NCBI GenBank assembly: GCA_964482515.1
Contig: CAYZXT010000006.1
Coordinates: forward strand, 28,521 to 92,520
Length of the DNA stretch: 64,000 nucleotides
Origin: an uncultured Elusimicrobia bacterium
Lineage (GTDB): Bacteria; Elusimicrobiota; Elusimicrobia; FEN-1173
Reading direction: 5' to 3'
Notes under the pieces: generated by a model
What the model saw: the letters and a program-made list of their open reading frames with translations, nothing else
The model's database searches: none
Told to the model about the DNA's origin: nothing
Part shown: piece after piece, positions 1-40,568 of the stretch
Layout: every line of letters starts with the position of its first letter
Numbering within the stretch: position 1 is the first letter of the stretch
Program-made: the position numbers and the translations under genes

Positions 1-1889
1 TCGTCGCCCGAACGCGAATAGACCGCGTAAAGCTTGTCCGACGCGGACGAGAGCGTGAGGTAGAAGAGCGTTTTCTCCTCGTCGTAGCCCGCCAGCTTTT
101 GGGAGATCCAATAGCCGGCCGGCTGCTGCATCAGCGCGCGCAGGCCGTCGCGCAGCAGCGGGTCTTCGTGCGACGAGCGAGGGAAAAGCCCTTCCTGCAG
201 CCCGACGAGGAACAACACTTTAAAGGAATCACCGCGGGCGTCCATGACCGACGCCACCCGCACGCCCTGTCCCATGCGCTCCGGCTCCAGCGACGCGCGC
301 TCCAGCCGTTCTTCCAGCGCTTCCAGAAACGACGTCCAGCCCGGCGGCTCGTTCAACGCGTCGAACAGCGCCAGGCTCTCGAGCGATGCGACGGTCTTCG
401 CCCATGCCTTTCCCTCCACTCCGTCGTGAGGCGGCGCCAAATACTCCCGCAGGATTTCCATGGCATGGGACACGAGGCCGCGCCAATTTTCAAAACGGCG
501 CGTGGGGTCCAAACGCTCATGGAGTCCCGACAGCCACGGCCAGAGAACGACGGCGCTCGCCGTGAGATCGCGGGCGTCTCCGGCGGACAGGGCCGACGGG
601 ACTTTCCCCTCCGCGCAGGCGGCCAATTTTCCCTGCCACTGGATCCAGCCCGAGTGGATACCCAAACGCTCCACGAGCGCGCGGGTTTCCGCCGGCACTT
701 TCTGCGCGCGGGAAAAATTGAGATAGGGAGACTCCGCCAGGTCGAGCAAAGCGCGGGCCGGCACGTCGCGGCGCCGCAGGGTCAAAAGGGCCAGCGCGGT
801 CTTGGCGATGGGGTGGCGGAGCAGCGGCTCGGAAGCCGCGAGGTGGAACGGGATGCCGTTCTCGCGGAAGACGTCTTCGACCGCCGCGCGATAGGGTTCC
901 AGCGAACGGGCCGTCACGCCGATCTGGGAATAGGGAACGGGATTGGACGGGTCCTCGCGCAGCCGCAGGATTTCCTTCGCCACGCGCCATATCTCGTCCC
1001 GCGCGCCCGAAGCGCTGATGATGTGAAAGGCATCCGCCTTCGGCCGGACGCCGGCCTTGTCCGGCGCGAAAAGACCGTCGAGCGCGCCGCCGACGGCCCG
1101 CGACGCCGCCCCCGGAGCAAGATGCTCGGGCGCCACGCCGCCCTGATGGAGTTTCAACTTGTAGAAACGCTCCGAGAAGGAGAAGGCCGGGTGCCCGTGG
1201 CGATAGGGAAAGAACACGCTCACGGGGCAGACTTCGCCGACGGACTGGAAGAAATCCGCCTGCACGCCGGTCAAGTCGTAGAACCCATAGTAAAGGACTT
1301 CCGCATAGGGAAATTTACCCGACGGGTTTTCCCGGAGGGACTGTGAAGCCCGGCGGGCCAGCGCGTGGAACGGCAGCAGGTCCAACTCCTTCAACCGCGC
1401 CGACAGTCTTTTCTGCAGGTGCAGCAGTTCTTTCAATCGCGCGCGGTCGTTCTCGTCCCGGACGAGTTCTTCAAAGTGGAATTCCAGGAATTGATCGGGG
1501 TCGACGCCGGCCTCCTCCAGGTCGCGAAGGGTTTCGCGGAAGGCCGAAGACAGGCGCCGAGAAAGGTTCTCATGCCGCGAGGCGAAATGGTCGCGCAGCA
1601 GCCCGTCGATCAATTTATCGAGGAAGAAATCATCCGTCAGCACCGTCCCGAACGAACGCCCTCCCGCCGACAGCACGTCGAGGGCCAGCGTGTAGAAGGT
1701 GTGGAAACGAACGTTGAGGAAGGTGCGGTTGTTTTCAACCGTGAGCAGGCGCTGCAGGCGTGAGGAAAGCTCTTTGGAGGGCGTGACGACGGAAATGGTC
1801 CGGCCTGGACCGGGCGATAAATCCTCCAGGCGTTTCAGGAACGCCGTTTCAAGCGAAGGCTGGAAGGGACCGCAGAAAACCTGAAACAC
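1..1889 (-). CDS. AddB/RexB-like helicase-nuclease subunit (PD-(D/E)XK superfamily), 3' end runs off the window
   Basis: Absent from the ORF track because it has no stop in the window. My hand translation of the minus strand from GTG at 1889 (overlapping the upstream TAG by 1 nt) stays open to nt 1: VFQVFCGPFQPSLETAFLKRLEDL...ISVVTPSKELSSRLQRLL...GVRVASVMDARGDSFKVLFLVGLQEGLFPR... The layout recalls AddB-type proteins. The + ORF 99..1346 is its antisense shadow. Confidence 0.5.
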   Translation of the reverse strand, partial: MFQVFCGPFQPSLETAFLKRLEDLSPGPGRTISVVTPSKELSSRLQRLLTVENNRTFLNVRFHTFYTLALDVLSAGGRSFGTVLTDDFFLDKLIDGLLRDHFASRHENLSRRLSSAFRETLRDLEEAGVDPDQFLEFHFEELVRDENDRARLKELLHLQKRLSARLKELDLLPFHALARRASQSLRENPSGKFPYAEVLYYGFYDLTGVQADFFQSVGEVCPVSVFFPYRHGHPAFSFSERFYKLKLHQGGVAPEHLAPGAASRAVGGALDGLFAPDKAGVRPKADAFHIISASGARDEIWRVAKEILRLREDPSNPVPYSQIGVTARSLEPYRAAVEDVFRENGIPFHLAASEPLLRHPIAKTALALLTLRRRDVPARALLDLAESPYLNFSRAQKVPAETRALVERLGIHSGWIQWQGKLAACAEGKVPSALSAGDARDLTASAVVLWPWLSGLHERLDPTRRFENWRGLVSHAMEILREYLAPPHDGVEGKAWAKTVASLESLALFDALNEPPGWTSFLEALEERLERASLEPERMGQGVRVASVMDARGDSFKVLFLVGLQEGLFPRSSHEDPLLRDGLRALMQQPAGYWISQKLAGYDEEKTLFYLTLSSASDKLYAVYSRSGD

Positions 1890-2212
1890 TATTCCGGCTT
1901 CGACGGCGGCTGGAAGCCGAACCCTCCGCCGCCTTCCGAGAGGCGGCTCGTCATTTTTTCAACCTCGCGCAGGAGCTCCGTCGGGCGCGTCTGCGCTTCC
2001 CCCGAGGCCCAGGCGAGGATGTTGAACATCAGCATCGCGATGGAAGCGAAGGCGGGGTTGGGCTTTTCCGCGGCTTCCTTGCGGATGGCGTTCATCTCGC
2101 CGTTGATCTCCGCGTAGTCGCGGGACACCTTGAAGATGCGCTCGCCGCAGCCGCGGCAGAACTTGTCCTCCGCGCTGTAGACCCAACCGCAGGTATGCGT
2201 CAATGGGGACAT
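1889..2212 (-). CDS. hypothetical small protein with a Cys-rich (zinc-ribbon-like) N-terminus
   Basis: 107-aa ORF with protein-like composition. It has THTCGW...CRGCGERIF cysteines followed by a hydrophobic stretch, and its stop overlaps the start of the downstream gene. Confidence 0.45.
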   Translation of the reverse strand: MSPLTHTCGWVYSAEDKFCRGCGERIFKVSRDYAEINGEMNAIRKEAAEKPNPAFASIAMLMFNILAWASGEAQTRPTELLREVEKMTSRLSEGGGGFGFQPPSKPE

Positions 2213-2228
2213 GGAACGCTCCTTTGGA

Positions 2229-2738
2229 CTATTTTTTTCGCCGGTTCTGGCGGACCGCTTCCGCCAGGACGATACCCGACGACGTCGAGAGGTTGAAGGA
2301 CCGGATCGACCCCGTGGCCGGGATCCGGAAGAACCGTCCGGGATACCGCTTCCAGAGGGATTTCGGAAGCCCGCGCGTCTCGGCGCCGAGGACCATGTAG
2401 GCGCCCTTCGGGATCCTCGCGTCCCAGAGGATTTTCTTCGCGTGGGTCGAGAAGAAGAAAATCTTTTCCTTCGGGATGCCGTGGAAGAAATAATCGACGT
2501 CCGGATGGACCTGGACGCGCACGTTGGGCCAATAGTCTAGGCCGGCGCGCTTCAGATATCTGTCGTCCAGGGAAAACCCCAGCTTGCCGACCAGGTGGAG
2601 TTCCGCGCCGAAACCCAGGCAGGTGCGGCCCACGTTCCCCGTGTTCCAGGGGATTTCGGGCTCCACCAGCACGACGCGGAAGGGGTTCGCCTTCGCGGCG
2701 GACGCTCTTTTGGTCATTTTAGTTTTTCCATTTTCCAT
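2229..2738 (-). CDS. trmL: SpoU-family tRNA 2'-O-methyltransferase (TrmL-like)
   Basis: FRVVLVEPEIPWNTGNVGRTC...YMVLGAETRGLP...IRIPATGSIRSFNLSTSSGIVLAEA matches the TrmL/SpoU motif order. The start is ambiguous (2747 TTG, 2738 ATG or 2717 ATG). Confidence 0.8.
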   Translation of the reverse strand: MENGKTKMTKRASAAKANPFRVVLVEPEIPWNTGNVGRTCLGFGAELHLVGKLGFSLDDRYLKRAGLDYWPNVRVQVHPDVDYFFHGIPKEKIFFFSTHAKKILWDARIPKGAYMVLGAETRGLPKSLWKRYPGRFFRIPATGSIRSFNLSTSSGIVLAEAVRQNRRKK

Positions 2739-2802
2739 AAACAACAATCCCGCCCTGAAGTTTCCTTCAAGACGGGACCATGGAGAGTGAATGTACGGCC
2801 GG

Positions 2803-3167
2803 CTAACCTTTTTCCCAGAGCTTCTTGCCTTTGAAGCCGTCGCCGGGGGCGTCGTCCGACGGCGGGATCCTCCGCTTGAGCTCCGCGTCGTCCGCGGCGG
2901 CCACGAAACGGAACTCGATCTCCTCGGGACGGATCAGGCCGAGGTTCCGCCTGGCTTCCTGCTCGAGGAATTCGTCGTCCCTCTGGGCACGCGCCAGTTC
3001 AAGCTGTTTGTTCGCCAACCGCGCCTGGGCCTCCTGCAGTTTGGCCGCCAGCCGGCTGTATTCCCGCCGGCGCGAAATGTAACCGCGCACGCCGCTGCTG
3101 GAGGCCAGCATCACCAGGACGAAGGCCCCGATGGACAGCCAGAGGACGTTCGTCTGGACGAATTTTT

Positions 3168-3171
<4 letters not shown>
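2803..3171 (-). CDS. ftsB: FtsB/DivIC-like septum formation initiator (coiled-coil, single TM)
   Basis: It lies immediately downstream of eno, the classic eno-ftsB synteny. The coiled coil is [38 protein letters not shown]. The TM helix ([15 protein letters not shown]) is encoded upstream of the first canonical start (GTG 3114), so I extend to CTG 3171. This start is uncertain. Confidence 0.6.
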
Positions 3172-4529
<1,358 letters not shown>

Positions 4530-6284: not shown

Positions 6285-9200
6285 TTAAGCGGAGGTCAAG
6301 AAAAGGCCAAGAGCCTTCAGTCCTTCTTGCAGGCTCTCAACCAGGCGGAAAATCGGCACCAGGACCACAACGTCCTTGTAGACGCCCAATTCGACCTGGT
6401 CCGAAGCGAAAATCACCGCATTTTTGGGATCCAATTGCCCCGCCTTTTCCAAGGCCGACAACAGCCTGTCCATCCTCAAGATCGCTCCGTCCAGAAGCGA
6501 CACTTCCGCGCGGGCCGAAGCAATGAGCGAGGGTCTCTCGCCGGCCAGGATGATCCGGATGTTGCCTTGGCGCAACAGGACGTCGTAGTCGCGCATGAAT
6601 TCCTCCCGGTCCCTGCCCGCATTGAAGGCTGCGTCCGCCGACATGCCTTGCCAGAAATCCGGAGAGGCTTGGCGCGGATCGCGCACGATCAGGGTCAAGG
6701 TGTTCGCCGTATCCCCGGCCGTTCCCGCATTATTGGCGACGAAGGCCGCCAGCAGTCCCGACACGGAGGCGCGCGCCGCGCCCTTCTTCATCACATCCGC
6801 CGGAACTTCAGCGAAGACGTCTTTGCCGCCCCTCATCCGCGCGGAAACTTTCGTGAAGACGACGCGTCCGGCGTATGCGGCCAGAATGTCACTCCGGAAG
6901 GTTTCATGGCCCCGCGGCGACCAAGCATCGCCCGGCGCGTTGTCGCCCAAAGACTCCAAAGCCCGCCCCAGGACATAAGCGGCCCCCCGGTCCCCGCCCC
7001 TTGCCGATTCCCGCGCCAAACCCTTGGTCAAGGCCCCGCGCAGAGCCGCCGGGTCGGGCGTTCCGTCCACAAAAGCGTTGCTGGCCAGTCTGATGTGAAT
7101 CCGCGGCAGGCCCAGGGCGTCCACCCCGAAATTCCGCGCCGGAGCGATGCCGCGCAGCCAGACGCGGGCCCGGTCGCGGAACCCCGACTCCTTCACATGC
7201 CAAGAATCATCGACGGCCACAGGGACCGGAACAACGGAAACCTCCGAAACCGAATCTTGCCGGGCGGATAGGATCGCGCGGAACGCCGCGGACAGAAGAG
7301 CGGAGAAGACCATCGCCAGAACAATCCCGCCGGCCACGCCGCCCGCAAGAGACCCCGCAAGGAAACCCAAAGATACCGGCAGGACCTGCGCCGCGAAATA
7401 GGCCCACCGCTCGCTCACCACGCCCAAGCCGTGCAGCGCCTCGTGCCCGGGCACGCCCAGGATATAAAGGCCGGCGCGGGACAACACCTTGAAAACGGGG
7501 TTTGAATGATAGACGAAATGGGCGAGGGAAGGATTCAGGACTAGCGCGTGTGTGTTCTTTTCAAATTCCAATAAATCGACGCCGGGCTCAACGCGGACCG
7601 AGCGGAACCCGAACAGGGGCGGCGCGCGACCGTCGGGGGTTTCATAGGCCGCTCCCGAACGCGCAGCCGCCGCCAAAACCAATCGGAGAATCCCCATCAG
7701 GACCAGCCCCGCCAGGGGCCAAGCCGCCGCCGCGCCCAGAGAGCTGGCCGCAAAACCGAAGGACGCGGCCAAAAACTGGGCGGACACCAGGAACGCCGCG
7801 GCCGCCACGCCGAACAACGCCGCCGCCCACAGCCCCTGCCGCCAGGTTTCCCGGGACACGGCCCTGCGCTCGATGTCCTCAAACAGCCTGTCATAAGCAT
7901 CCGACTCTCCTTCCGCTTCGAACCAATCGCGAACTTTTTTCAACGCGGCGGAACGATCCACCAGCGTTTCCAAAAGCCTATTCAGCAATTCGCTCCTTGG
8001 TCCATGGGCCGTCGGTTCCGATTGAGCGTCCCTCTCGCGCGATGAATACGCCTTCGCGGCGTCCTCATAACCCATTATGTCCGAAACTTTCCCATCATCG
8101 CCCACGAAGTACACTTGCACATACTCCGGAACCCGACATTTCAAAATAAAGTCCAACATGGCCTTTTTGGGAAACGCAGCATTCACTTTAATCGTGCACG
8201 GGACCGTGATCCCCGTGGTCAACTCGTTTAGGACGCGATGGATTATCAACCATTCCGATAGACCTTCTAAATTTATACTAATTACGGATGAATTATCCTC
8301 GACCCGCGTTTCCTCCTTCGACAACGATCTCATAAGGCCGCGAAGAGTTCCCATCATCTCCTCTGTAGGATTGGTTGGTTCACCAAATTTTCCGGACAAC
8401 GCCCAGGCATGGTCGTATTGCTTGGACCCGCTATCAACTATCAAGTCCTTTGGATTCGGATGGTGGAGGAACAAATTGACGATCATCGCCTCGGGAAATT
8501 GGCCGTCAGAGACAAAGACTTTATGCAGGGCCCGCAACCCAAAAAGAGGAGACAAATCCTTCACCCGGCTGGCCTCCAAGTGAAGTATCCCCAGACTGGG
8601 CAAGGACCCCATGCCTTCGAGGGGTTCCTGTCTTTGTCCCACATTGACCAGCAACCCGAATACATTTTTTTCCACCGTGGCTGAAGGGCCAAACAGGTCC
8701 CTCGCCCGCGTTACTTGGCTTTCGAGAGTGGGGAAGCGATCCTCAGCGGCCGGGGCCGGCGTCGCAATGGGCCCCATATCGGCGAACTCTTCCGGGTGCG
8801 CGCGGCGATAAGCGACAGCCTCGGGATAGGCTATTGTTCTGAACGATTTAAAAAATCCGATCTTGACGGCCTCGGGTCGAGGGGAACTTAAAATGATCCT
8901 CGACAGCACGGCTTCGGAAAATTGCCCTTCTTCGATAACTATTTTTAAATTCCTTACGTTAAGGTATTGAACCATTTTCAGCATGTCGGAACCCTTTATG
9001 CTCGCTCCGACAAAAAAAGTAAATTCCCCGAAGGATGACGGGTGAATGCTGCTCTCATTGGCGGCTGCGGGCCCGACTATTGCTTTCAGGTCATTCGACA
9101 ATTCCGCCGCAATCACAGAATCATTGTATGACGGAAAGATATGATCCATGCGATACGTCTTCTTACCTTTTCCCGATCTGGAAATTTCAGCAATAAAAGC

Positions 9201-12200
9201 CTTCGGCGCAGGACTATAATCCTGATAAAAACTCCTGATATCCTTTTTACGAAATTTCCCCTCTGGAATACTCATGGTTTTCAGCCCTCGTAATCCACTG
9301 AAAACCCTCAAGTCGGAAGGGCCATCCTCCTTAATAATGATCGATTCGATGCTCGGGCACTTCCTCCAAAGGACGTCCCAGGAAACCGCATAGTCCCGGT
9401 CAAGCATTAACTCCAGGGGACCATCATCACGCAAATGAACTTGATTTTCGCCGAAGGTGTCAACGAGAATCCGCCGCTGCTCCTCGATCGTGGGGAAGGG
9501 GTCCGGCGTATCTGCAGGCTGGACAGTCCGCTGCGCGGCGGGCGGCGTTGTCCCGGGCAACGCCATGAGGGAGAACTGCTTTGGGTGCGCGCGGTAATAC
9601 GCGACAGCCTCGGAATAACTCATTGAACGAGACTCCCCCTCATCGGATGAAAAGATAAAATGAACGTTCTCGGGCACGGGGGAAGTTAAAATAAAAAAGG
9701 TCATGAAAAATTCGTCGATTTGAAATCCTTCAGACATCAGAAAGACTTCTCTCATTTCAGAAAAGCCCGTCAGTACCCTCAATTCATCGACGCCCAGCCC
9801 TTGAGAAAGGCGAATGCGTAATTGCCACATATCCTGCATAAACTCCGCTGTCACAGAACTCATCATGTTGTGTCGCCCGAGTTTTTCCCTGATTATCGCC
9901 CTGACTTCCTTGAAGCCGGACCCTGGAATGAAGTCCGCCGCCGAAAACCATTTCATGCCTCCAGACGGATTGTCTGAATAAATACGGATCCTTCCAGAGT
10001 TTTCAGCTTCGCGATAAAACCTTTCAAGTTCCACTCGATGAAACCTCCCGGCTGGAAGCTGGATATTGCGCAGACCCCTTATCCCTTCATAAAAGTTAAT
10101 ACTGAGGGTGCCGTTTTCCCCGACAATTATCGTCCTAATGCTCGGGCAATGCTTCCAAAGGGATTCACACTCCCTATAAGGAAATAAATCTCTATCATCC
10201 ACAGTTAACTCCAAATCCCCGTTCCTATCCACCTTCACTTTTTCGGGCCCGAAGATATCAATGAGCGCTTCACGCTGCTCCTCGATCGCGGGGAAGGGGT
10301 CCGGCGTATCAGCAGGCTGGACAGTCCGCTGCGCGGCGGGCGGCGTTGCCCCGGGCAACGTGACGGTGAACTCCTCCGGGTGCGCGCGGCAATAGGCGAC
10401 AGCCTTGGAATAATCCATAAAACGGGGGGTCTCCCCTTGCATTATAATCTCCTGAATCTCCTCAATCGAGACGCCCTCGGGAAAAGGAGCGCTCAGAACG
10501 ATTCGGGCCATGTCGGCATCCGTAAATTGATCATGATCCACAAATATCAGGATACTCGCTCGACGAGAGTATTCCGTCATTTTCATTAAGTCGGGAACCG
10601 TCGCAACCTTCGTAGGTTTAATCTCATACTTACGAGATACCCCCAGACGAACATAAATATCACGCGTCAAGTGGGGCGGGACGAATTCTCGGCACGCCTC
10701 TTCCATCTCGGATATTAAATTTTCGTTGCTCAATCCAGGGGTGAAGGTGCTCGCCGAATAACTTTGTCTTACTATTTCTTCATCCCACACATGAACGACA
10801 ATTCGCATGGGATCATTTTCATTCCCAAAAAAAAGGCCGACGTCGTCATCAGAAAATTTTCCCGGTGGAATAAAAATGGTTCTCAGCCCTCTTAATCCAT
10901 TGAAAATCCTCAAGTCGGAAGGGCCATCCTCCCTGATAATGATCGATTCGATGCTCGGGCACTTCTTCCAAAGGGCGTCCCAAGAAACCTCGTAGTCCCG
11001 GTCAAGCGTTAGCCCCAGGTTACCGTGGAGAAGCAAACGAACTTGATTTTCGCCGAAGGTCTCAACAAGAATCCGCCGCTGCTCCTCGATCGTGGGGAAG
11101 TGACCGGAGGCATCCAATACATTATCGGGATAAACAGAATCAACCGGCGCCTCCTTCAAAACGGGCGCCCGTTCCCTGTCGCGGCGGGCGACGGCGTAAA
11201 TGTAAGCCGCTTCCACGCGGGACTGCAGTTCCCGCGCGCTCATGATGATGTAAGGCGCTTCTTTCAGATAGGCGGCCGCCTGGGGCTCGTCCAATGTCCC
11301 GGAAACAACAACCACCTCGAACCCCCTGTCCTTGAGGAAATGGACGAACTCGCCGGCGATGAGATTGCCCCCGTTGGCCGGCAGGCCGTGAACGAGCAAC
11401 GGCGGCCGGGTCGAAGCGGTGGGCATGCCACCGCGGCGGAACCCCCGCAAGGGATTGCGCAGGAACTTGGGGAGATAGAGCGTTCCGGTCCCGGGCGGGC
11501 CGAACTCCCGGCCCGGAGTCGCACGCCGCTGCACGAAAGCGGAAGCTTCCGCGTCAAGGAGGGATGAAACCGTCGTGCTTAATTCCTTCATTTTTGAATA
11601 TCGGGACTCCTCACTCAGAACGCTGGGGACAGGACGCGCCGATACGGATTCAGAGATCTGGACATCGTTATTGTCGTCGCGAGCCTTCGATTCATGAGCT
11701 CCCTCAATTCCATCGTATCGGGAGCCGACCGTTTCCGAGGCAACCCGACCAAACAATCCCGCCAGCCGACCCATTTGCGATATCCGGATCCGCCCAAGGA
11801 ACCCCAAAAATCGGGTCAACCGAGAATCTTCGGTTGAGACCCCTTCTGCCCTGGCCGCCGACAACTTGATCCCGCCATAAACCATGGACGCCAATAAACT
11901 GAGTCCGACAATAATAACCAGCGGAAGATAATTCGGCATTCCACGCAACAGCTCGGGTTCAGGAATTCTGGGAATCATTGCCGGAAGCGCCGAAGATCCC
12001 GAATTCGCGTGAACAACAAGAAGAGCCAGGATTCCCGAAGCCAAAAGGACCCCCGCGGCCAATGCCAGCCGCCTCATCCGAAATCGCGACCCGGCCGGCG
12101 CTTTATTCGATTTCAATTTAGCTTGCGCGATGGCCAATATCTTCGCTTTCCTCGCCGTCAAATCCTTGTCTCCGAGAAATCCCAGGGCCGTCAGAATCGA

Positions 12201-15200
12201 CCGGGGCGCCTTATTGTCGGTGAGCTGCGCGATTATTTCCCGAAGGCGCTCTTCGGAGGCCAGGGGCAAGTCATCTTCCATCAAACCGAGCTCATCGCTC
12301 AAACTCTTTAATATTTCGTTGCGCTGATCCTGCAAATCCTCAACGACGTCCTCCAGCGGCTCCTCTGGAACCGCCCGTTCCTCCATCTCGCGCGGCGGGC
12401 CGGACAGGTCCACCTCCCCGATACGACCAAGGACTTTCCCAACGTCAACACTCCCCGGCCGTGGCAAAACCGATTTTTCCTTGGGAGAACGAACCGGGAC
12501 GGCACCAAGGCTTAGGAACTCACCGTCCAATTTGATCCTCTGCATGGCTTTCAGGGCAAGGTATTGCCGGTAAAGAATTTCATCCTCCTCCAGGGTCTCC
12601 GGGATACCGTTTTGAAAAATCTCATCCACAACGTCCAAATGCCGCAGGGCCAAGGCAAACGGGTTGAGGTTTACTTCCCCATACCGCTCCAACCAAGCCG
12701 ACGCGGCCGCTTCCAATTGCGTTCGCGATATTTCCTTCCTTCCGTAGGCGATCAGGGCCAGTTGGAATATTTTCTTCGGCGCCAGGGAAAACAGCCCCTT
12801 CCAGTCACCGGCAATCCCCCTCTCCAAGTCGCGCTGAAAATAGACCGACTCATGGTCATTGTCTTGCGTTATGCTTCCGGGGAAATGTTGCCGCATTGCC
12901 CTTTTGTGACGCAGATCCTCCAAATCTTGATACACATCCTCAAAGGGGTCCGCCGGGGCCTGCAACCCCGCGAGCGAAAGAAAAAAATCCGGCGCCGAAG
13001 TGGGGGTAAGCCCCGCGAAATCCCGAGTGAATAACCCATGTCCGGCTTCATGCTCCAGGGTGTTCAACCAATCTTGGCCATCGAACTGGTCCTCCCTAAA
13101 AGCGATGTCCACCTTCTGCGCTTTGTAGGTCCCAGCTGCGGACTGCCCCGCGGGCTTGAGGCTGATTGTCACCGGCCGTTGGTGGACAGGAAGGATGAAT
13201 TGGGCGATGCGGCCGATGGCCTTCACTTTGTCCAGGCCGCTTCTGAACTCCAGGGAAGCAAGCGCCTTCCGGCCGGGCAATTCTTGCCCCCTCAGCATCC
13301 TCCGCAGATAGATGGGGCCGTACACCCTCTCCACGGCCTCTTCCGCCGAAACGCCCGACGCCGCCACGAGCAGGGCCCGCTTGAATTCCCGCGGCGTGGG
13401 CCGCTCCCGAGACCGCGGCAGGGCGTTCTGTATCCAAAGGTGCGCGCGGACGATGTAAGCCATGTCCTCGTCCGACAGGGCCGGGGCCTTCGTCCCGAAT
13501 TCCGTGACGATGTCCAAAGCGTATTCCGATAAGTCATCCTTGTCGTAATCCATCTCGCGGCGGAAGATCACCCGGTTCTGCAAGGCCGTGGAAAGCCTTT
13601 CGCGGCCGCTGAAGTCGGCCCCGTTGATCGTGGCGATGAACGCAAAACCCTTCGCGTCGGTGTTATCGTCGGTCAGCACGTCGTTCAGCTTCCCTTCCAA
13701 ATAGCCGCTGGGCAATACATCCAACTCGCTGACCACTAGAACGACCCCGTTCTCCTTGGCCCAAACTATGGCCTTCTCAAGCTCGTCGAACCGCGGCGAG
13801 GCGTTGATGTGGCAAAAGCTGCGCGGGCCCGGCGCGGCCGCCCCCGCCTTGACCGCCTCATAACCGCTCGACTCCAGAACCCGCACCACGGTCACGTCCT
13901 TGCCGCGGCCGGAGGCTCCCTCCAAAATCATTCCCCGCTTTCCCGCCGCAAGCCCGTTCCGTTTCATACGATATTCCCGCATGATGAGGAAATCTCCCAC
14001 CGCCGCGGCCAACCTCATCGTGGTGCGCGATAGGGTAAGGGCCCTCGACCTATACAATTGGGCCCCCTCGTTGCGCAGATCCTCTATCCAGGCGTTTTGG
14101 AGAGCCTCCGCGTCCACCGCGAATTTCAGGCGGAGCGCGTGCCGGAGCGCGACGCGGCCCTCCGGACTCAAGCTCGGCGAGAACATTTCCCACGCCGCAA
14201 GGAGCGCTTCTTCCACGATATTGCCGGATCCGCTCAGCACCTGCGCCCGGGCGGACAGTTCCTGGAGGTCGCGCAAAGAAATTCCCTGTCCCTCCTCCCA
14301 CCCCGCCACCCGGCGAACGGTCTCAAATACCCCGAGCAGCAGGGCCCGCAAGGCCGCCGCGTTCGGCGCATCCGGCGACACGTATTCTTCGAGCCTTTGC
14401 CGGAAAAACGCCTCGTCGAATTCAGGGAAGGCGACGGTGGGGACGTGCGGGGCGAGGAAATCCTGATACTTTCTGTCCTGCAGGGTTTCCTGGTTCCCGG
14501 TGAAAACGACCTTCTTGCCCTCCATATCGATCTTGCGCCCTTCGATCCACATGTAGGGGGTTTCCCCTTCTCCCACGAACAGCCCCCCGAAGAACCGCCA
14601 AAAATCCGGCCGCGCCAGGTTCGCTTCGTCCAGGACCAGCAGCGCCGGCCCATCGTGCAAAGCCCAGCGCGTGATGTCGGCGAACGCGGAGGCCCTGCCG
14701 GTCTCATCGTCGTTCGAGTCCTGTTCCTGGGCGTCCACCCCGATCGTCACGGGCCCGAACATCCGCAGCCCCAGCGCGTCCGCCAAACCTTTTGCCGCAA
14801 AGCTTTTTCCCGTCCCGGGAGACCCTTTCAGGAACACCGCCGGGGATTTTGCCAATATTCTCCGCACCCGCCCCAAACGTTTATCCCAACTTTCCTCGAC
14901 CGGGCCGGCCTTGTCGTTGATGGAAGGAGCTTGATCAACGGACGCGTTCGCCTTTCGGAAAAGGGCGCGGTAGAAACCCTCCCGGTCATCGCCCAGGTGC
15001 GCCGCGATCAGCGCGTCCTGAATCAGCTCGAGCGCCCTCCCGGCGCCCGCGCGATCAAAACTTTCGGGCACGCCGGCTTCGTCCAACAAATCCAGGCTGA
15101 GGGTATCCGCGAATTCCCAAAAACGGTCCTTCCATGTGGCGGGAGCGACGATCTTGTTCATCGCCGCTTTCAGTTTCGGCCCATGAATGCTCCTCCCAGT

Positions 15201-18200
15201 CAGCCCCGCCTCCTTCGGCCGAAATGTCCGCCGCGCCGCCGTCCGCAGAAACGCGGCCACGTTCGGATCGTCCGCGTAATCGTCAAGATAAACGTCCTCA
15301 AAGGCCCGCATCCAATCCAGCGTGCCATCGGGGTTTCGAGCCTGGCGGCACAGGAGCCGGAGGCGTCCCAGGCTGAAATCCGCCCGAGCCGGATAGAGCC
15401 CGCGCCGCGCCGGCGGAGGGACCGTCTCGAAAGCCCTTCTCAAGGAGAGCACCTTCTCAATATCGCTTTCCGTGAGAGCTCCACTGAATTCGCGCTTCAA
15501 TTCCTCCACTATGTCCCGCACGGAAATGTCCAACACGGCGCGGTGAAGAACCGAGACGCCGGCGCCGCTCCCGATATGAGAAAGAAGGATCAAGCGTCCC
15601 GTTAAAACGTTTTCCCCTTTGCCGGCGAAGGGACGGACCTCGCCGTTCACCACGAGATAGGGATTTTCATGCAAAGCCGTTTCCAACTGGCGCAGGAGAT
15701 CCGGATTGGATTCCATCCCCGCCAAAACGACGGTTTCTCCCCGTTCCAAGGCCTCCAACACCTGCCTCTTGACCGCCCGCAAACGCCCCCCCGGCAACAG
15801 CTCGCTCGCCATCGATAGATCGTCCAGGATGGTCGCCGGCGTGACCGGATAAACAAGGGGGGGCTGGCCGTTCCGTTCGGAGACGTCCCGCATGATCCGC
15901 GCCAACAGGCCGGACGGGTCCGATCCTTCAACGAGCGACACCCGCCGGTCCCGCGCCATTTCCCACGACTCCGGATCCGGGGCCCTGGTCCGGCGGACCG
16001 CCGGCAGCATTCCACGATAACGCAACGGGACCTCCACGCCGACGCCCAATTCAATTTCCAATTCGCCGCCCATATGCAAAAGACGGTGCCACAGCGACTC
16101 CGGAATTTCCGGATCGGTTATAAGGACCCGGAGACGCCCTCCGTCCGCGCCCATCCGCTCCAGCAATCCCGCGCCCTGGGACAACGTCCCCTGGGAATCG
16201 ATGCGGGTGAACTCAAACAGCTGGTGCTGCGTTTCCCGGTTCAAGACCCACGCGCGCTCCGCCGGCCAGGCGGTCTCGCCCGCCGGCACGACCCGTTTAT
16301 TCTCCAAGGCGCGCCGCCCGTAGCCGCCCTCCGCCCAATGGACGGAAAAACCTTCCCGCGCCGCCACCCATTTTCCGTTGGAAAGGATCCCGCCGTTCAA
16401 GAGGGCCTGCCGGACCATGTGGGACAACCGGGTGTTGGGGATTCCCTGCTCATCTCGCCACACGCCCCCTTGGATCAAGAGGGGCCGCCCTTCCCTCATG
16501 GCCCGGACGAGTGCGCCCTCTTCCCAGCGCACGCTTCCGTTGGGCAGAAGCCGGTAGCGCGCGACCAGCGCATCCTTAATATCGATGTCGTCGGACTCGA
16601 AAAGTTCCGCGCGCAGGCCGTTGAAAGCCTCCGGATCGTCGACCTGGGACAAACCTTCCAGCGGATCCGCGTAATCCGCGTCCGCTTGGAATTCCCCGGT
16701 CAGGGAGCGTGAATAAAAATCAACCGAAAATTCACGCAGCTGGTCCTCCCGCACCGCCCCAACGATGCGGAGCGACGGAGAGGCCTTAACGCCCAAATAC
16801 TCCGGAGAGTCCCCGAACAGCTGATTGAATCCCGCCACGGTCTTTGGGTCGGAATTCGTGTAGTCCAGGAACAACACGCCGCCCCGCTCGATCAATTGAA
16901 GCAAGGGGCTTTTCGCCTCCCCAAACCGGCCGTTTATCACGCGCGCGGGATTGAGCAAATCATCCAAATCGGTGTCATCCCGCAGGGTCAGCCGCAAATA
17001 CGGAATGTTTCCGTTCGCGGCCACGATTTCCCTTAGCCGCACATCCAATGCCTCCACATCCCGGGGCGTATTCACGAAGGTCAACCCGCGACCTTCGTTC
17101 AATAGATCGGTCAGGCTCGGATCGGCCCACGGCGAACCCATCGTCATCGGGAAACGGCGGAATATTTTGTTCCACCCCGTGTGGACGGCAACGGCCAGAA
17201 CAAAGCCGATCACCATGGCCAGGAGGGAGTAAAGCGGTCCATCGAACCCGGACAGGAACAACCGGGGCGCGGCGAGGGCGGCGAGGTTGAATAAGACAAC
17301 GGCGAAAAGGCGGACGGCGAAATCAACGGGGGATTTATTTTCATGGCGGAAAACGAAAGACGCCTGGTGCGCGGCGTAATAAACCGCCGCCACCAGCCAG
17401 AACGACATGACTATCGCCAAAAGCAGCGGATTCGCCTCCAGCAACACAGCCTTCAAATTCCATGCCGCCATCAGGATGAGGCCAGGCGCGCGGCCCATCC
17501 AAAAGGCGCGCCAGCGCGTCAACGTCGGCTGCCCCCGCGCTTCGATTTCCTTCCGCGCCGAAGCGGCGGGAGCCAGGCCCGCTTCTTCAATCACGGAATA
17601 GCCAAGCAGCTTGTGACTGATCATAGGATTCCTCAGCCACTCCGGCGCATGCTTGACCGCATTTTCGTAATAGGCCTTCGTGCTCGACAGGATCAGCGAG
17701 CGGCTTCCCCACAGGTTTTTCCACCAAGGAACGCTCAACCTCCGCGGCGGACTGAACCTCACCGACTGAAAGGAATCAGCGCCTCCCACGGGGAATTCGG
17801 CGACCACCGACGGCGCGCCCGGTCGCGCAATCAACAAGCCGTTCTCTCCGAACCCGATACTCCACCCCCACCACGCCTTGGCTTTCTCAATCAGCGCGCG
17901 AAGATTTTTACGCCTTTCACCTGAGGGAAGTTTGTTTTCCCTCCACCGCGCCTGGCTGCCCTCAACAGTGGCGGCCAAGGCGTTCGCCTTCACGGCGAAA
18001 TCATGGGCCTGGATCCTTCGCTGGAAGGGTTCGGCCAACCGCCGAATCAGCCCCGGCGAGGTAAACCGTGCGAAGATCAGGGAGATGGGTTCTCCGGCGA
18101 AAATTTTCTCGATGGGGAGTGGATCGCGGGAGAAGATGTCCATGTAATTTTTGGCCTGATCGATGTTTTCCACCTTTGGCGTGACGACGACGTAAGACGC

Positions 18201-19853
18201 ATTCTTCCGCCGCCAAAGCGCCGTCATACCCTCGGTGTGGAACCCGCCGGTCACCAGGACGGCGGAGGTTTGCTTTTCTTCTTTCATTTTCCTGAGCAGG
18301 TTTTCGGTGAGGGCTTCATTGCGGGCCAAAGCCAGACGGCAGAAATCTTCGAACGGTTTCAGCAATTCCGCGCGTATGGCGGGAAAAGCCGGAGAGCCCG
18401 ACGACAGAGAGCGGGCCCGGTCCGCCATGTTGAGGATCAACGGGCGTCGTTCCGTATAATCGGCCCAATGCCGCGGCGTCATTTCCGTGCGGAGCAATTT
18501 CGTCAGCAGGGCCTGGTCGCGTCCCAACCCCGCCAGTTCCTTTTGCGCCGGCTCAAAAGTGAGCCCGGCTTCGACTGTTTTTTCCATCCGTTCCAACTCG
18601 TCCAACAACTTGTCCCGGTTTATGCGCTCCGCGGACTGGACGTAGGTCATATAATCGGACAACTGCGGATAGCCGGTCAGGTCGATGTTCTTTTCCCGGC
18701 AAAGATCGCGCATATACGCGTAATATTCCCCGTAGCTCCTTTGACCGGCGCGGTACTCGACGCTCGCCCGCACCAGTTCATCCAGGGACTCCCGGCTCAG
18801 TCGCGATACCAGGCGATCGATCAAATCAAGCCGCTCGCGTTCCACCTTTTTGAAATCCAGTTTTTTCTCCCACCGGATCGCCCGGGACAACAGGGCCACG
18901 TTGGGATAGGCCCCGGCATCCGCGCGGGAGGAAAGAAAATCCACGTAAGCGCCCAGCCCTGTTTTACCCGCCTGGAAAGTTTGATAGAAGCGGTCGAACT
19001 CCTTGAGCCCGGGCGAATAAATTTTTTCTTTCAGACCGCTCACGGCCTCGGCCAGACCCGAGAGGAACTCCTCCGCTTCCCTCCGGCGGTCCTGGGCCGA
19101 GAGCACCGCGCGGGTGTTGTCGGCGTAAAGGTCGCCCGTCTCCACGCCCCAGAGGAGCGGCGCGACCTCCGACACCAACCCCAAATATTCCGCACCGCCC
19201 ACGTATCCTTCCTCCAGGAAATAGTCCGCGAGCTGTTGGTTCATTTCTTTCCCGGCCTCGGGCAGGGCCTTGTATTTTTCCATCTCGAAGTAGCCCTCGG
19301 CGCCCTCCAACCCCACGAGCTTCACCCCGCGCCCATCCTTCAGTCCCTGCAGGATGCGGGCGATGTTCTTTTGCGCGTCGTAGGCGCCATGGATGTCTTG
19401 AATGTGGATGATGAGGGGCGAATCCGATTTAGCCAAATGGATTTCCCGGACGCTTCCATAGGGCAAGACCAATCGGGAAAGCCAAGCGGGAACAATCCCG
19501 TTCTTGGCCCACTTCACGTTTTCAGAGAGGTCATGGGCGGACAAGGGAGCCAGAGATGGGGCGAGGGTGGATCCGTTCAGGGTTTCGGGAAGTCCCAGCG
19601 GGATTTGGCCGGTGGGAAGCTGGGCGAGGAGTTGATAGTCCCGGGATGAAAGACTGTTCGCGCGGCCCGGGTTATTTTGCGCCGAAGAGCGGGATACGGA
19701 TCTTCGTTCCTCCCAAAAGTTCGCCTCGGCCAAGGGCGATGCGACCGTTGAATAAAATAACAAGGCGCAGAGGGCGGCGGCGAGGCTCTTTTTGCTCGGT
19801 CCTTGCGCGCTGAAAGGCCTGAAAATCGAGCGGGTTCGGCGGATTATATCCAT
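6285..19853 (-). CDS. giant (4,522 aa) polytopic membrane protein: conserved N-domain, multi-AAA+ block, two HExxH motifs, 4 tandem modules, C-terminal domain
   Basis: ATG 19853 to TAA 6285-6287, uninterrupted. Composition is protein-like throughout, while overlapping ORFs are R/P/G/A-rich shadows. Motifs read directly: GSPGTGKS (14802-14825) with LLVLDEANLA (~14611-14645); GASGRGKD (13896-13919) with VVLVVSELD (~13715-13750); IATINGADFSGRERLSTALQNRVIF (~13560-13640); HEAGH (13038-13052); HEALH (7431-7445). Hydrophobic clusters lie near 17150-17480, 11860-12075 and 7270-7850. Confidence 0.9.
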   Translation of the reverse strand: MDIIRRTRSIFRPFSAQGPSKKSLAAALCALLFYSTVASPLAEANFWEERRSVSRSSAQNNPGRANSLSSRDYQLLAQLPTGQIPLGLPETLNGSTLAPSLAPLSAHDLSENVKWAKNGIVPAWLSRLVLPYGSVREIHLAKSDSPLIIHIQDIHGAYDAQKNIARILQGLKDGRGVKLVGLEGAEGYFEMEKYKALPEAGKEMNQQLADYFLEEGYVGGAEYLGLVSEVAPLLWGVETGDLYADNTRAVLSAQDRRREAEEFLSGLAEAVSGLKEKIYSPGLKEFDRFYQTFQAGKTGLGAYVDFLSSRADAGAYPNVALLSRAIRWEKKLDFKKVERERLDLIDRLVSRLSRESLDELVRASVEYRAGQRSYGEYYAYMRDLCREKNIDLTGYPQLSDYMTYVQSAERINRDKLLDELERMEKTVEAGLTFEPAQKELAGLGRDQALLTKLLRTEMTPRHWADYTERRPLILNMADRARSLSSGSPAFPAIRAELLKPFEDFCRLALARNEALTENLLRKMKEEKQTSAVLVTGGFHTEGMTALWRRKNASYVVVTPKVENIDQAKNYMDIFSRDPLPIEKIFAGEPISLIFARFTSPGLIRRLAEPFQRRIQAHDFAVKANALAATVEGSQARWRENKLPSGERRKNLRALIEKAKAWWGWSIGFGENGLLIARPGAPSVVAEFPVGGADSFQSVRFSPPRRLSVPWWKNLWGSRSLILSSTKAYYENAVKHAPEWLRNPMISHKLLGYSVIEEAGLAPAASARKEIEARGQPTLTRWRAFWMGRAPGLILMAAWNLKAVLLEANPLLLAIVMSFWLVAAVYYAAHQASFVFRHENKSPVDFAVRLFAVVLFNLAALAAPRLFLSGFDGPLYSLLAMVIGFVLAVAVHTGWNKIFRRFPMTMGSPWADPSLTDLLNEGRGLTFVNTPRDVEALDVRLREIVAANGNIPYLRLTLRDDTDLDDLLNPARVINGRFGEAKSPLLQLIERGGVLFLDYTNSDPKTVAGFNQLFGDSPEYLGVKASPSLRIVGAVREDQLREFSVDFYSRSLTGEFQADADYADPLEGLSQVDDPEAFNGLRAELFESDDIDIKDALVARYRLLPNGSVRWEEGALVRAMREGRPLLIQGGVWRDEQGIPNTRLSHMVRQALLNGGILSNGKWVAAREGFSVHWAEGGYGRRALENKRVVPAGETAWPAERAWVLNRETQHQLFEFTRIDSQGTLSQGAGLLERMGADGGRLRVLITDPEIPESLWHRLLHMGGELEIELGVGVEVPLRYRGMLPAVRRTRAPDPESWEMARDRRVSLVEGSDPSGLLARIMRDVSERNGQPPLVYPVTPATILDDLSMASELLPGGRLRAVKRQVLEALERGETVVLAGMESNPDLLRQLETALHENPYLVVNGEVRPFAGKGENVLTGRLILLSHIGSGAGVSVLHRAVLDISVRDIVEELKREFSGALTESDIEKVLSLRRAFETVPPPARRGLYPARADFSLGRLRLLCRQARNPDGTLDWMRAFEDVYLDDYADDPNVAAFLRTAARRTFRPKEAGLTGRSIHGPKLKAAMNKIVAPATWKDRFWEFADTLSLDLLDEAGVPESFDRAGAGRALELIQDALIAAHLGDDREGFYRALFRKANASVDQAPSINDKAGPVEESWDKRLGRVRRILAKSPAVFLKGSPGTGKSFAAKGLADALGLRMFGPVTIGVDAQEQDSNDDETGRASAFADITRWALHDGPALLVLDEANLARPDFWRFFGGLFVGEGETPYMWIEGRKIDMEGKKVVFTGNQETLQDRKYQDFLAPHVPTVAFPEFDEAFFRQRLEEYVSPDAPNAAALRALLLGVFETVRRVAGWEEGQGISLRDLQELSARAQVLSGSGNIVEEALLAAWEMFSPSLSPEGRVALRHALRLKFAVDAEALQNAWIEDLRNEGAQLYRSRALTLSRTTMRLAAAVGDFLIMREYRMKRNGLAAGKRGMILEGASGRGKDVTVVRVLESSGYEAVKAGAAAPGPRSFCHINASPRFDELEKAIVWAKENGVVLVVSELDVLPSGYLEGKLNDVLTDDNTDAKGFAFIATINGADFSGRERLSTALQNRVIFRREMDYDKDDLSEYALDIVTEFGTKAPALSDEDMAYIVRAHLWIQNALPRSRERPTPREFKRALLVAASGVSAEEAVERVYGPIYLRRMLRGQELPGRKALASLEFRSGLDKVKAIGRIAQFILPVHQRPVTISLKPAGQSAAGTYKAQKVDIAFREDQFDGQDWLNTLEHEAGHGLFTRDFAGLTPTSAPDFFLSLAGLQAPADPFEDVYQDLEDLRHKRAMRQHFPGSITQDNDHESVYFQRDLERGIAGDWKGLFSLAPKKIFQLALIAYGRKEISRTQLEAAASAWLERYGEVNLNPFALALRHLDVVDEIFQNGIPETLEEDEILYRQYLALKAMQRIKLDGEFLSLGAVPVRSPKEKSVLPRPGSVDVGKVLGRIGEVDLSGPPREMEERAVPEEPLEDVVEDLQDQRNEILKSLSDELGLMEDDLPLASEERLREIIAQLTDNKAPRSILTALGFLGDKDLTARKAKILAIAQAKLKSNKAPAGSRFRMRRLALAAGVLLASGILALLVVHANSGSSALPAMIPRIPEPELLRGMPNYLPLVIIVGLSLLASMVYGGIKLSAARAEGVSTEDSRLTRFLGFLGRIRISQMGRLAGLFGRVASETVGSRYDGIEGAHESKARDDNNDVQISESVSARPVPSVLSEESRYSKMKELSTTVSSLLDAEASAFVQRRATPGREFGPPGTGTLYLPKFLRNPLRGFRRGGMPTASTRPPLLVHGLPANGGNLIAGEFVHFLKDRGFEVVVVSGTLDEPQAAAYLKEAPYIIMSARELQSRVEAAYIYAVARRDRERAPVLKEAPVDSVYPDNVLDASGHFPTIEEQRRILVETFGENQVRLLLHGNLGLTLDRDYEVSWDALWKKCPSIESIIIREDGPSDLRIFNGLRGLRTIFIPPGKFSDDDVGLFFGNENDPMRIVVHVWDEEIVRQSYSASTFTPGLSNENLISEMEEACREFVPPHLTRDIYVRLGVSRKYEIKPTKVATVPDLMKMTEYSRRASILIFVDHDQFTDADMARIVLSAPFPEGVSIEEIQEIIMQGETPRFMDYSKAVAYCRAHPEEFTVTLPGATPPAAQRTVQPADTPDPFPAIEEQREALIDIFGPEKVKVDRNGDLELTVDDRDLFPYRECESLWKHCPSIRTIIVGENGTLSINFYEGIRGLRNIQLPAGRFHRVELERFYREAENSGRIRIYSDNPSGGMKWFSAADFIPGSGFKEVRAIIREKLGRHNMMSSVTAEFMQDMWQLRIRLSQGLGVDELRVLTGFSEMREVFLMSEGFQIDEFFMTFFILTSPVPENVHFIFSSDEGESRSMSYSEAVAYYRAHPKQFSLMALPGTTPPAAQRTVQPADTPDPFPTIEEQRRILVDTFGENQVHLRDDGPLELMLDRDYAVSWDVLWRKCPSIESIIIKEDGPSDLRVFSGLRGLKTMSIPEGKFRKKDIRSFYQDYSPAPKAFIAEISRSGKGKKTYRMDHIFPSYNDSVIAAELSNDLKAIVGPAAANESSIHPSSFGEFTFFVGASIKGSDMLKMVQYLNVRNLKIVIEEGQFSEAVLSRIILSSPRPEAVKIGFFKSFRTIAYPEAVAYRRAHPEEFADMGPIATPAPAAEDRFPTLESQVTRARDLFGPSATVEKNVFGLLVNVGQRQEPLEGMGSLPSLGILHLEASRVKDLSPLFGLRALHKVFVSDGQFPEAMIVNLFLHHPNPKDLIVDSGSKQYDHAWALSGKFGEPTNPTEEMMGTLRGLMRSLSKEETRVEDNSSVISINLEGLSEWLIIHRVLNELTTGITVPCTIKVNAAFPKKAMLDFILKCRVPEYVQVYFVGDDGKVSDIMGYEDAAKAYSSRERDAQSEPTAHGPRSELLNRLLETLVDRSAALKKVRDWFEAEGESDAYDRLFEDIERRAVSRETWRQGLWAAALFGVAAAAFLVSAQFLAASFGFAASSLGAAAAWPLAGLVLMGILRLVLAAAARSGAAYETPDGRAPPLFGFRSVRVEPGVDLLEFEKNTHALVLNPSLAHFVYHSNPVFKVLSRAGLYILGVPGHEALHGLGVVSERWAYFAAQVLPVSLGFLAGSLAGGVAGGIVLAMVFSALLSAAFRAILSARQDSVSEVSVVPVPVAVDDSWHVKESGFRDRARVWLRGIAPARNFGVDALGLPRIHIRLASNAFVDGTPDPAALRGALTKGLARESARGGDRGAAYVLGRALESLGDNAPGDAWSPRGHETFRSDILAAYAGRVVFTKVSARMRGGKDVFAEVPADVMKKGAARASVSGLLAAFVANNAGTAGDTANTLTLIVRDPRQASPDFWQGMSADAAFNAGRDREEFMRDYDVLLRQGNIRIILAGERPSLIASARAEVSLLDGAILRMDRLLSALEKAGQLDPKNAVIFASDQVELGVYKDVVVLVPIFRLVESLQEGLKALGLFLTSA
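8040..11100 (-). repeat. four in-frame tandem protein modules (~805, 798, 762 and ~700 nt) inside giant ORF 1
   Basis: Module starts are marked by (P/H/R)FPT(I/L)E(E/S)Q at nt ~11100, 10295, 9497 and 8735. Each has two LRR-like halves and ends in (Y/M)xEAVAYxRAHPEEF-type linkers. Hand-counted DNA identity between copies: 85/88 (9475-9562 vs 10273-10360), 58/60 (9439-9498 vs 11041-11100), 115/125 (9281-9405 vs 10883-11007). Confidence 0.85.
13560..17150 (-). other. multi-AAA+ (AAA_5/MoxR/midasin-like) block, two units with intact Walker A/B and upstream degenerate units
   Basis: There are two P-loop/Walker-B pairs (see the CDS entry), each followed by an ATxN...GR..L..AL.NR-type segment. Upstream units lack the P-loop Lys but keep Walker-B-like strands (GGVLFLDYTNSDPKTVAGFNQLF; GETVVLAGMESNPDLLRQLETAL). 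Confidence 0.6.
18085..19722 (-). other. conserved N-terminal domain of giant ORF 1 (paralogous to 44230-45870)
   Basis: Alignable by eye block by block with giant ORF 2: FWEERR/FWQDRR; IHIQDIHGAYDAQKNI/VLVQDAHEIYSAQLNI; LVGLEGAEG/LIGLEGAAG; LWGVETGDLY/MLGVETPTLY; LDFKKVERERLDLIDRLVSRL/LDFKAVESERLQLVKILSHRL; VLVTGGFHTEG...VVVTPKV/VIVVGGFHAPA...VTVTPKV; PLPIEKIFAGE/VPLEKMFLGE. Confidence 0.85.
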
Positions 19854-39559: not shown

Positions 39560-39841
39560 TCAGCCGCCGGAGCCGGAGTTCGAGGAGCCGGTGGACGCCT
39601 TCCGCGCGCCCGGCCCGCCCGCCACCTTGCCGATCACGTTCTTCAGCCAGCTTTTCTTCGCGCCGCCCGCGTCGGGCTTATGGGACTGGGATTTCTTTTC
39701 GTCCGGCGCATCGGCCCGCGGCGCGAACTGCGCCTTCGCCAGGGCCTTGCTCTCCTTGACCTGGTCTTCGGCCAGGTGACATTTCTTATACTTCTTCCCC
39801 GAACCGCAATGGCAGGGGTCGTTCCGTCCGATGTCGTTCAT
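39560..39841 (-). CDS. small SEC-C-motif protein with Lys/Ala/Gly-rich basic tail
   Basis: The N-terminal metal-binding motif NDPCHCGSGKKYKKCH is followed by a low-complexity basic tail. Confidence 0.65.
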   Translation of the reverse strand: MNDIGRNDPCHCGSGKKYKKCHLAEDQVKESKALAKAQFAPRADAPDEKKSQSHKPDAGGAKKSWLKNVIGKVAGGPGARKASTGSSNSGSGG

Positions 39842-39845
39842 GATT

Positions 39846-40250: not shown

Positions 40251-40283
40251 GAGAGGAGTCTCCTTTGGAAGTTATACGGAAAT

Positions 40284-40568
40284 CTAATTGCCCTTCAGGT
40301 CGAACCAGGGGACCCGCTGCGCCCCGTGAGGATGGCCGTCCGACGCGAAGACCTGCACGCCCTTGATCTCGTACCAAACCGAATCTTGCGGCGCGCGCTG
40401 CGGATGGTGCTCCGTGGGGAAGAATTTCTTGTCCTGCACGCGGTACCACGGCTGCGCGTCCGGGCCGTCGGGATGGTGGACGGTGGTGAACACCAGCCCT
40501 TCGCGGATCTCGAAGGTCGGAAGTTTCTGGAAGCCCTTGGGATGGAAGACTGTATTGAAGAGTTTCAT
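40284..40568 (-). CDS. hypothetical small protein (His/Pro-rich beta-type)
   Basis: 94-aa ORF with repeated HHP/GHPHG segments and protein-like composition. Confidence 0.45.
   Translation of the reverse strand: MKLFNTVFHPKGFQKLPTFEIREGLVFTTVHHPDGPDAQPWYRVQDKKFFPTEHHPQRAPQDSVWYEIKGVQVFASDGHPHGAQRVPWFDLKGN

Follow-up and report, generated by a model that had tools for sequence, protein, structure and literature searches.

The 64,000-nucleotide stretch of DNA analyzed here as a whole, which we call the window, comes from an uncultured Elusimicrobia bacterium (contig CAYZXT010000006.1, positions 28,521 to 92,520 of the forward strand). On its minus strand there is an open reading frame (ORF) of 13.6 kb (6285..19853) that encodes a giant protein of 4,522 amino acids (aa) with about ten predicted transmembrane (TM) helices. 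The subject of this work is a HExxH motif of that protein, HEALH, together with the conserved module in which it is set. A first-pass annotation had located HEALH at 7431-7445, in the last cluster of TM helices, and a base-by-base check gave the same position: gtgcagcgcctcgtg, when reverse-complemented, reads cac gag gcg ctg cac, the motif occupies aa 4137-4141 of the giant, and the peptide quoted in that annotation, LYILGVPGHEALHGLGVVSERWAYFAAQVLPVSLGF, is found in the protein. The GC content at the three codon positions (0.70/0.51/0.77 for the module, 0.62/0.44/0.70 for the giant ORF as a whole) fits translation in the minus-strand frame, and the plus-strand ORFs that overlap the module region have the GC pattern expected of antisense shadows. 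The giant protein contains two HExxH motifs, against 0.076 expected from composition only; the first of them, HEAGH, lies at aa 2268-2272 (13038-13052, minus strand). Composition alone leaves chance open for a single HExxH.

The whole conserved module extends over aa 4006-4204 (7242..7838; all the features of the giant ORF given here are on the minus strand), a span over which there is homology to six other proteins. In about 190 aa, it comprises two TM helices, a strand-rich loop of about 70 aa, a helix bearing HExxH, a helix headed by Glu and a TM hairpin. Kyte-Doolittle hydropathy places TM1 of the module at aa 4009-4031 (7761..7829) and TM2 at aa 4044-4066 (7656..7724). Next comes the predicted cytoplasmic insert, aa 4067-4118 (7500..7655), with conserved LFGF and x-L-x-[LV]-N-P blocks and the invariant L4104, followed by the predicted active-site helix, aa 4119-4142 (7428..7499), which ends in G4136-H4137-E4138-A-L-H4141 and thus includes HEALH (7431..7445). 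The Gly turn and the start of the next helix (7377..7424) hold the invariant G4144, E4148, Y4152, A4155, Q4156 and P4159. The first arm of the hairpin, TM3 (aa 4157-4175; 7329..7385), is continuous with the Glu helix, and a Gly-rich turn connects it to the second arm, TM4 (aa 4177-4196; 7266..7325). The last TM cluster therefore consists of two helices before the motif and two after it. Beyond the hairpin, the C-terminal soluble region (aa 4197-4522; 6288..7265) has neither a homologue nor a family match.

An exhaustive HMMER scan of 1.84 billion cluster-representative proteins, with giant aa 3950-4522 as the query, returned only the giant itself and five other proteins (P0002-P0006, E 3.4e-7 to 5.7e-4), and all the matches were limited to giant aa ~4011-4222, which correspond to the TM-loop-HExxH-TM region. 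The module signature can be written as G-H-E-x-x-H-x-x-G-x(2-3)-E-x3-Y-x2-A-Q-x2-P, with P0002-P0006 keeping the form G-H-E-[AS]-x-H. A degenerate DNA pattern was also built from the invariant residues. Applied to genomes and metagenomes with the +7 spacing, this pattern gave no match in 185,579 reference genomes and one contig (L001) among 241 million metagenome records; applied with both spacings to viral contigs, it gave none. The metagenome contig carries a true family member, an ORF of 2,229 aa with the full module that shares 41% identity with the giant over 127 aa (pairwise E 4e-16). A word-indexed homology search with the C-terminal 533 aa produced no match, and two profile alignments matched P0006 only; the index of the word-indexed search is evidently blind to the module family. 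Searches with tblastn against plasmids and phages were also negative, and no further copies of the module were found in the window or in related loci. No full-length orthologue of the giant protein was present in any collection searched, GTDB genomes included, and every member is a singleton cluster; thus, what is conserved is the module and not the whole protein. One of the members, P0004, is a complete protein of only 443 aa that carries the module.

Eleven columns are invariant in the alignment of the seven modules: L4104, G4136, H4137, E4138, H4141, G4144, E4148, Y4152, A4155, Q4156 and P4159. The overall identity of the members to the giant protein is 30-47%, and outside the motif block they have in common, in the same order, the upstream pair of hydrophobic helices, LFGF, x-L-x-[LV]-N-P and the downstream double hydrophobic segment. 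For P0002 and the L001 protein, the similarity is significant well beyond the motif block. The motif could also be imagined as a functionless HExxH that arose by chance in a hydrophobic region rich in Ala, Gly and Leu, as the expectation for a single HExxH in the giant protein, about 0.08, is not negligible genome-wide. This explanation is effectively refuted, and we regard it as extremely improbable: six independent homologous modules keep the motif and eight further positions without change, and the DNA pattern, absent from all the reference genomes, found in the metagenomes nothing but a true family member. The constancy of the motif in each of the six homologous modules rules out chance, and HEALH is, judged by the alignment, a constrained functional site.

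With respect to the membrane, the first-pass annotation had offered two positions for the motif, at the edge of hydrophobic helices or within them, and it is the first that agrees with the hydropathy analysis. A Kyte-Doolittle value of 1.6 in a 19-residue window was taken as the threshold for a TM-grade segment. The best window holding HEALH in the giant reaches 1.02, the mean over the motif is 0.24-1.13 in 7/7 members, all of them below the threshold, and the next TM-grade segment starts about 15-30 residues past the motif in the seven members. The motif adjoins the membrane and is not inside a TM helix. Other points of that annotation can be judged on the same data. It had asked for conservation of HExxH in orthologs, which is seen in the six homologous modules, and it had considered the possibility of a motif buried in mid-helix without partner ligands; what is found is a motif outside any TM-grade segment and accompanied by conserved potential ligands (Glu at +6/+7, Tyr and Gln). 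From its proposal of an M48/M50/M56-like arrangement, the conserved HExxH flanked by membrane helices stands, in an order like that of HtpX and MecR1, but membership in M48, M50 or M56 does not.

The distribution of charges gives an indication of the orientation. Loops assigned to the cytoplasm have 3-9 Lys/Arg at their flanks, and the short TM1-TM2 and TM3-TM4 connectors are uncharged, which, as a heuristic criterion, supports a ten-helix topology for the giant with both termini cytoplasmic. In this charge-based topology, the AAA_5 ATPase domain (described below), both HExxH motifs and the C-terminal 326 aa would all be cytoplasmic, along with about 80% of the protein overall, and only aa 43-801 and short loops would be outside. 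In P0002, a DnaA_C-type helix-turn-helix domain comes after the module with no TM helix between them, which argues for a cytoplasmic location of the C-side of the module.

The position of the motif bears on the possibility that the module is a divergent member of the site-2-protease (S2P) clan (MEROPS clan MM, with M50 and DUF3267/TmcP-like proteins), which would cut its substrates within the bilayer. The sole Pfam signal in the whole family points in this direction: P0005 gives a weak match to DUF3267 (PF11667), with E 0.014 and 16.2 bits against a gathering cutoff of 27.1, covering profile positions 5-73 of 108 and starting at the HExxH. A 2026 preprint assigns the DUF3267 proteins to the S2P clan: most of them are HExxH proteases with four TM helices, they have a distal Asp and a Pro, and one of them, TmcP, was shown by mutagenesis to be a site-specific protease (PMC13252029). 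In addition, there is a resemblance between the invariant Q-x-x-P of the module and the N-x-x-P that forms part of the S2P motif. Nevertheless, the other six members give no match to DUF3267, and hhalign against E. coli RseP yields a probability of 1.5%. The Asp of the M50 motif NxxPxxxxDG is absent, as there is no Asp after the invariant Q-x-x-P and no invariant Asp in the hairpin. Moreover, the HExxH is not in a TM-grade helix, and the predicted strands precede the HExxH helix, as they do in soluble zincins and in MecR1 (PMC6925264). On balance, we think that an S2P-type protease is very unlikely.

Structure prediction adds some detail to the module, although with limited precision. Two AlphaFold2 runs were made with a shallow alignment, and their mean pLDDT values were 53.5 and 60.9. 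The two runs agree on the secondary structure, in which a TM helix precedes three short strands (aa ~4085-4106), one short helix and the helix 4119-4142 ending in HEALH; after these come a five-residue loop with the invariant Gly and a long helix starting at E4148. The pLDDT is about 70-81 from the HExxH to the hairpin and 39-53 in the part with strands and short helix, so the three beta strands and the short helix of the insert (aa 4067-4118) are predicted with low confidence. The residues E4148, Y4152 and Q4156 are spaced i, i+4, i+8, which puts them on one face of a helix directly from the sequence. The invariant Glu, which lies 6-7 residues past the second His at the predicted start of the next helix, is the residue that we infer as a candidate third ligand.

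Taking these data together, we think that the HEALH module is probably a zincin-type catalytic site, rare and previously undescribed, that is placed against the membrane. This reading is based on a HExxH located at a helix end, a Gly at +3, an acidic residue heading the next helix and strands predicted before the motif; besides, both His and the Glu of HExxH are conserved in 7/7 modules, which is a zincin-type feature. In the mechanism that we propose, the two TM helices would be followed by about 70 aa of cytoplasmic insert that would play the part of a zincin N-terminal subdomain, with the sheet that binds the substrate and its backing helix. An amphipathic helix would then end in G-H-E-x-x-H, with the invariant Gly three residues further on forming a tight turn, and the following helix would open with the invariant Glu, present Tyr and Gln on the same face and run into a TM or re-entrant hairpin. 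The presumed Zn2+ ion would be held by H4137, H4141 and, most likely, E4148. E4138 would act as the general base that activates the water molecule, and Y4152 and Q4156 could be second-shell or transition-state residues. Located at the cytoplasmic surface of the inner membrane, such a site would have as substrate cytoplasmic polypeptide close to the membrane, which might include parts of the multidomain protein that carries it. Our confidence in any particular substrate is lower than in the zincin-type site.

Several observations weigh against this reading. Only seven members are available, all of them recruited by similarity that includes the motif block, and the four weakest matches (E ~1e-4) owe much of their score to this block, so that for them the conservation is partly circular. 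The spacing between the Gly and the Glu differs by one residue between members. A third ligand 6-7 residues past HExxH has a metzincin-like spacing, but a Glu is at that position, and we know of no characterized family with a Glu third ligand 6-7 residues past HExxH. Neither Pfam nor NCBIfam gives a match for the module of the giant, even at E<=10, and PDB sequence and profile searches with the module, the C-terminal domain and the HEAGH region were empty or irrelevant. Fold searches with the module models found no zincin, the models being too poor for fold assignment. No curated family, solved structure or profile comparison puts the module among the zincins.

Part of this evidence would also fit a conserved metal or structural site that is not a protease: a metal sensor, a membrane-surface hydrolase acting on a non-peptide substrate or a pseudo-enzyme with the role of anchoring or organizing large cytoplasmic domains. 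Conservation speaks of constraint and not of chemistry, and the module has no detectable relation to any proven peptidase. Its proposed ligand arrangement is without precedent, as the motif string gave no result in a literature search, and HExxH occurs in non-protease domains too (PMC3650047). However, zincins are classically built on this pattern, with G-H-E-x-x-H-x-x-G and then an acidic residue that opens the next helix, and the predicted succession of elements (strands, a helix, the helix with HExxH and one more helix) agrees with a minimal zincin. The Glu at the catalytic position is also invariant together with both His, whereas pure metal sites tolerate changes there. We consider a site of this kind unlikely.

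A different assignment within the zincins would be that of a highly divergent gluzincin of the M48/M56 type (HtpX, BlaR1/MecR1-like), with the HExxH facing the cytoplasm and a helical hairpin interrupting the catalytic core, in which the third ligand would come just after the hairpin, as D4199 or E4203, instead of being E4148. The order and spacing of the elements speak in its favor. In MecR1, a TM helix is separated from HExxH (204-208) by about 80 aa that contain a small helix and three strands, and the motif is followed by a re-entrant hairpin (213-243) and E245xxxD (PMC6925264); in the module, about 70 aa separate TM2 from HExxH, and the hairpin after the motif measures about 40 aa. Acidic residues lie about 3-10 residues past the hairpin in 6/7 members, and the autoproteolysis of BlaR1 is known (PMC6925264). 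On the other side, the Peptidase_M48 and Peptidase_M56 models match no member, even at E<=10, the hhalign probability for E. coli HtpX is 0.3%, and no penicillin-binding sensor or transpeptidase domain is matched in the giant protein. The seven-sequence alignment has no invariant acidic column after TM4, where M48 and M56 have ExxxD: the post-hairpin acidic residues are unaligned and the L001 protein has none nearby, whereas E4148, before the hairpin, is invariant. We therefore judge this assignment unlikely and retain a zincin-type site with E4148 as the most likely third ligand.

The presence of a second motif in the giant protein had led the first-pass annotation to raise the possibility of self-processing, that is, that the module and HEAGH (aa 2268) are two proteolytic centers that cut the giant precursor into functional pieces. 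According to the charge-based topology, both motifs would be on the same side of the membrane as most of the protein, which makes self-cleavage sterically possible and nothing more. Self-cleaving membrane zincins, such as BlaR1, are known (PMC6925264). Among the other members, the L001 protein contains five HExxH motifs, when 0.084 would be expected from its composition, and in several members, such as P0002 (the helix-turn-helix domain) and the L001 protein (a methyltransferase), large cytoplasmic domains that might be released come after the module. But neither a family match nor a homologue was found for the HEAGH region, and the module also occurs in the complete 443-aa protein, in which there is little to release. 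All in all, we find such self-processing quite unlikely. The HEAGH and HEALH regions were also compared as possible duplicates, and the HEAGH region with the HExxH regions of the L001 protein; both relationships were rejected, as there is no significant similarity. A broader proposal, to which we give very little credence, would be that the module represents a zincin family of its own, in which a minimal metal site, HExxHxxG(x)2-3E, is joined directly to a membrane hairpin and might serve as the built-in maturation protease of giant multi-enzyme membrane polyproteins. If it were true, the 4,522-aa giant and the 2,229-aa L001 protein would be cut at the cytoplasmic surface of the membrane, in a bacterial counterpart of viral polyprotein processing.

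The two members with significant similarity well beyond the motif block, the L001 protein and P0002, have further features. The L001 ORF runs from 6572 to 13261 on the minus strand of contig Ga0182027_10000472, and its protein has, besides the module, four more HExxH motifs (HELGH 286, HEFGH 697, HEMTH 1641 and HESLH 1656) and a C-terminal SAM methyltransferase domain (aa 1916-2030). P0002, of 1,058 aa, is encoded at 928-4104 on the plus strand of contig Ga0182027_10009337 (locus L002), with the module near its N-terminus and the DnaA_C-type helix-turn-helix at aa 737-804. A membrane-tethered DNA-binding domain beside a putative protease resembles a system for the regulated release of a transcription factor.

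Other regions of the giant protein are also worth describing. Its AAA_5 ATPase domain is near aa 1673 (hit aa 1673-1695), and a second Walker-A-like stretch, GASGRGKD, can be seen in the translation near aa 2010 (the two lie at aa ~1673-2020, window ~13800-14840), which suggests tandem MoxR/dynein-type ATPase domains upstream of HEAGH. Four tandem repeats of about 265 aa, with mutual identities of 25-75%, occupy aa 2914-3941 (window 8031-11114), between two TM helices (aa 2596-2663) and the module with HExxH; they have no family match. In the N-terminal domain, aa 495-542 (window ~18230-18370) give a weak, sub-threshold match to the ChaN/Tiki superfamily (PF04187), with E 0.0088 and a score of 16.5 bits, the cutoff being 27.7. 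Since some Tiki-like domains are metal-dependent proteases, this may be a third hydrolase-like region of the giant. A second large ORF of the window, at 44084-49825 on the plus strand, encodes 1,913 aa without Pfam domain and without HExxH, and its first ~570 aa are paralogous to giant aa 35-598 (35% identity, E 2.6e-84). The genome has, thus, at least two large proteins with the same predicted extracytoplasmic N-terminal domain.

Regarding the genomic context, the gene of the giant protein has housekeeping neighbors (enolase, phosphoglucomutase, glycolate oxidase subunits and ComEC). The P0002 gene is immediately upstream of rimP-nusA-infB-rbfA-truB, and the module gene of L001 is beside plsX-fabHDG. 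No conserved neighborhood and no mobile-element context were found at the loci compared, where the neighbors are unrelated housekeeping genes. The GC content at third codon positions of the giant ORF, 0.70, is below the 0.85-0.89 of the neighboring housekeeping genes, which is compatible with weak codon adaptation or with a different evolutionary history. In another part of the window, a tRNA-His whose anticodon, ATG, is unusual is called by ARAGORN at 40065-40137 on the plus strand, inside the ORF 39831-40721. At gathering thresholds, no RNA family of Rfam matches the window, and there is no rRNA in it; in the light of the Rfam result, the tRNA call is probably spurious.

If the module is an active protease, it would represent a new and extremely rare family among the membrane-associated zinc proteases. 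The arrangement of its putative ligands, with a Glu 6-7 residues past HExxH that heads a membrane helix, is undescribed for M48, M50, M56 and the metzincins. Furthermore, the presence of the module within very large multidomain membrane proteins offers a testable handle on the question of whether such giants undergo post-translational processing. The practical value is modest, as there are seven known members from uncultured environmental bacteria, with no phenotype attached to any of them.

The comparison with known systems helps in placing the module. From M50 and the site-2 proteases it differs in having its HExxH outside a TM-grade helix and in the absence of the Asp ligand from a later TM helix. 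With DUF3267/TmcP it shares a small four-helix membrane unit around HExxH and a conserved Pro (P4159 in the module), but it has no conserved distal Asp, its HExxH is not intramembrane and the family match, seen in one of the seven members, is below the cutoff. The metzincin consensus is HExxHxxGxx(H/D), and the module resembles it, at the sequence level only, in the invariant Gly three residues past the second His and in a potential ligand at +6 (+7 in some members); the module, however, has Glu in place of His/Asp, no invariant Met downstream in the alignment, where metzincins have their Met-turn, and a membrane helix as the next element. HtpX (M48B) is a stand-alone protein of about 290 aa in which a pair of N-terminal TM helices is followed by a cytoplasmic loop, HExxH and two hydrophobic segments, and its active site faces the cytoplasm. 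The module has this same order, TM-TM, cytoplasmic loop, HExxH, TM-TM, and probably the same orientation, judging from the charges, although it lacks a conserved Glu after the second hydrophobic pair and is embedded in giant multidomain proteins. M56 (BlaR1/MecR1) has, as is predicted for the module, a HExxH on the cytoplasmic side, a catalytic core against the membrane, a helical hairpin directly after the motif and about 70-80 aa of helix and strand from the TM helix to HExxH; unlike M56, the module has no sequence or profile similarity to that family, no conserved ExxxD and no extracellular penicillin-binding sensor, and its invariant Glu comes before the hairpin. The module thus stands outside each of the named families by the features that define membership, yet in its way of working it would be most like a membrane-surface protease of the M48/M56 type.

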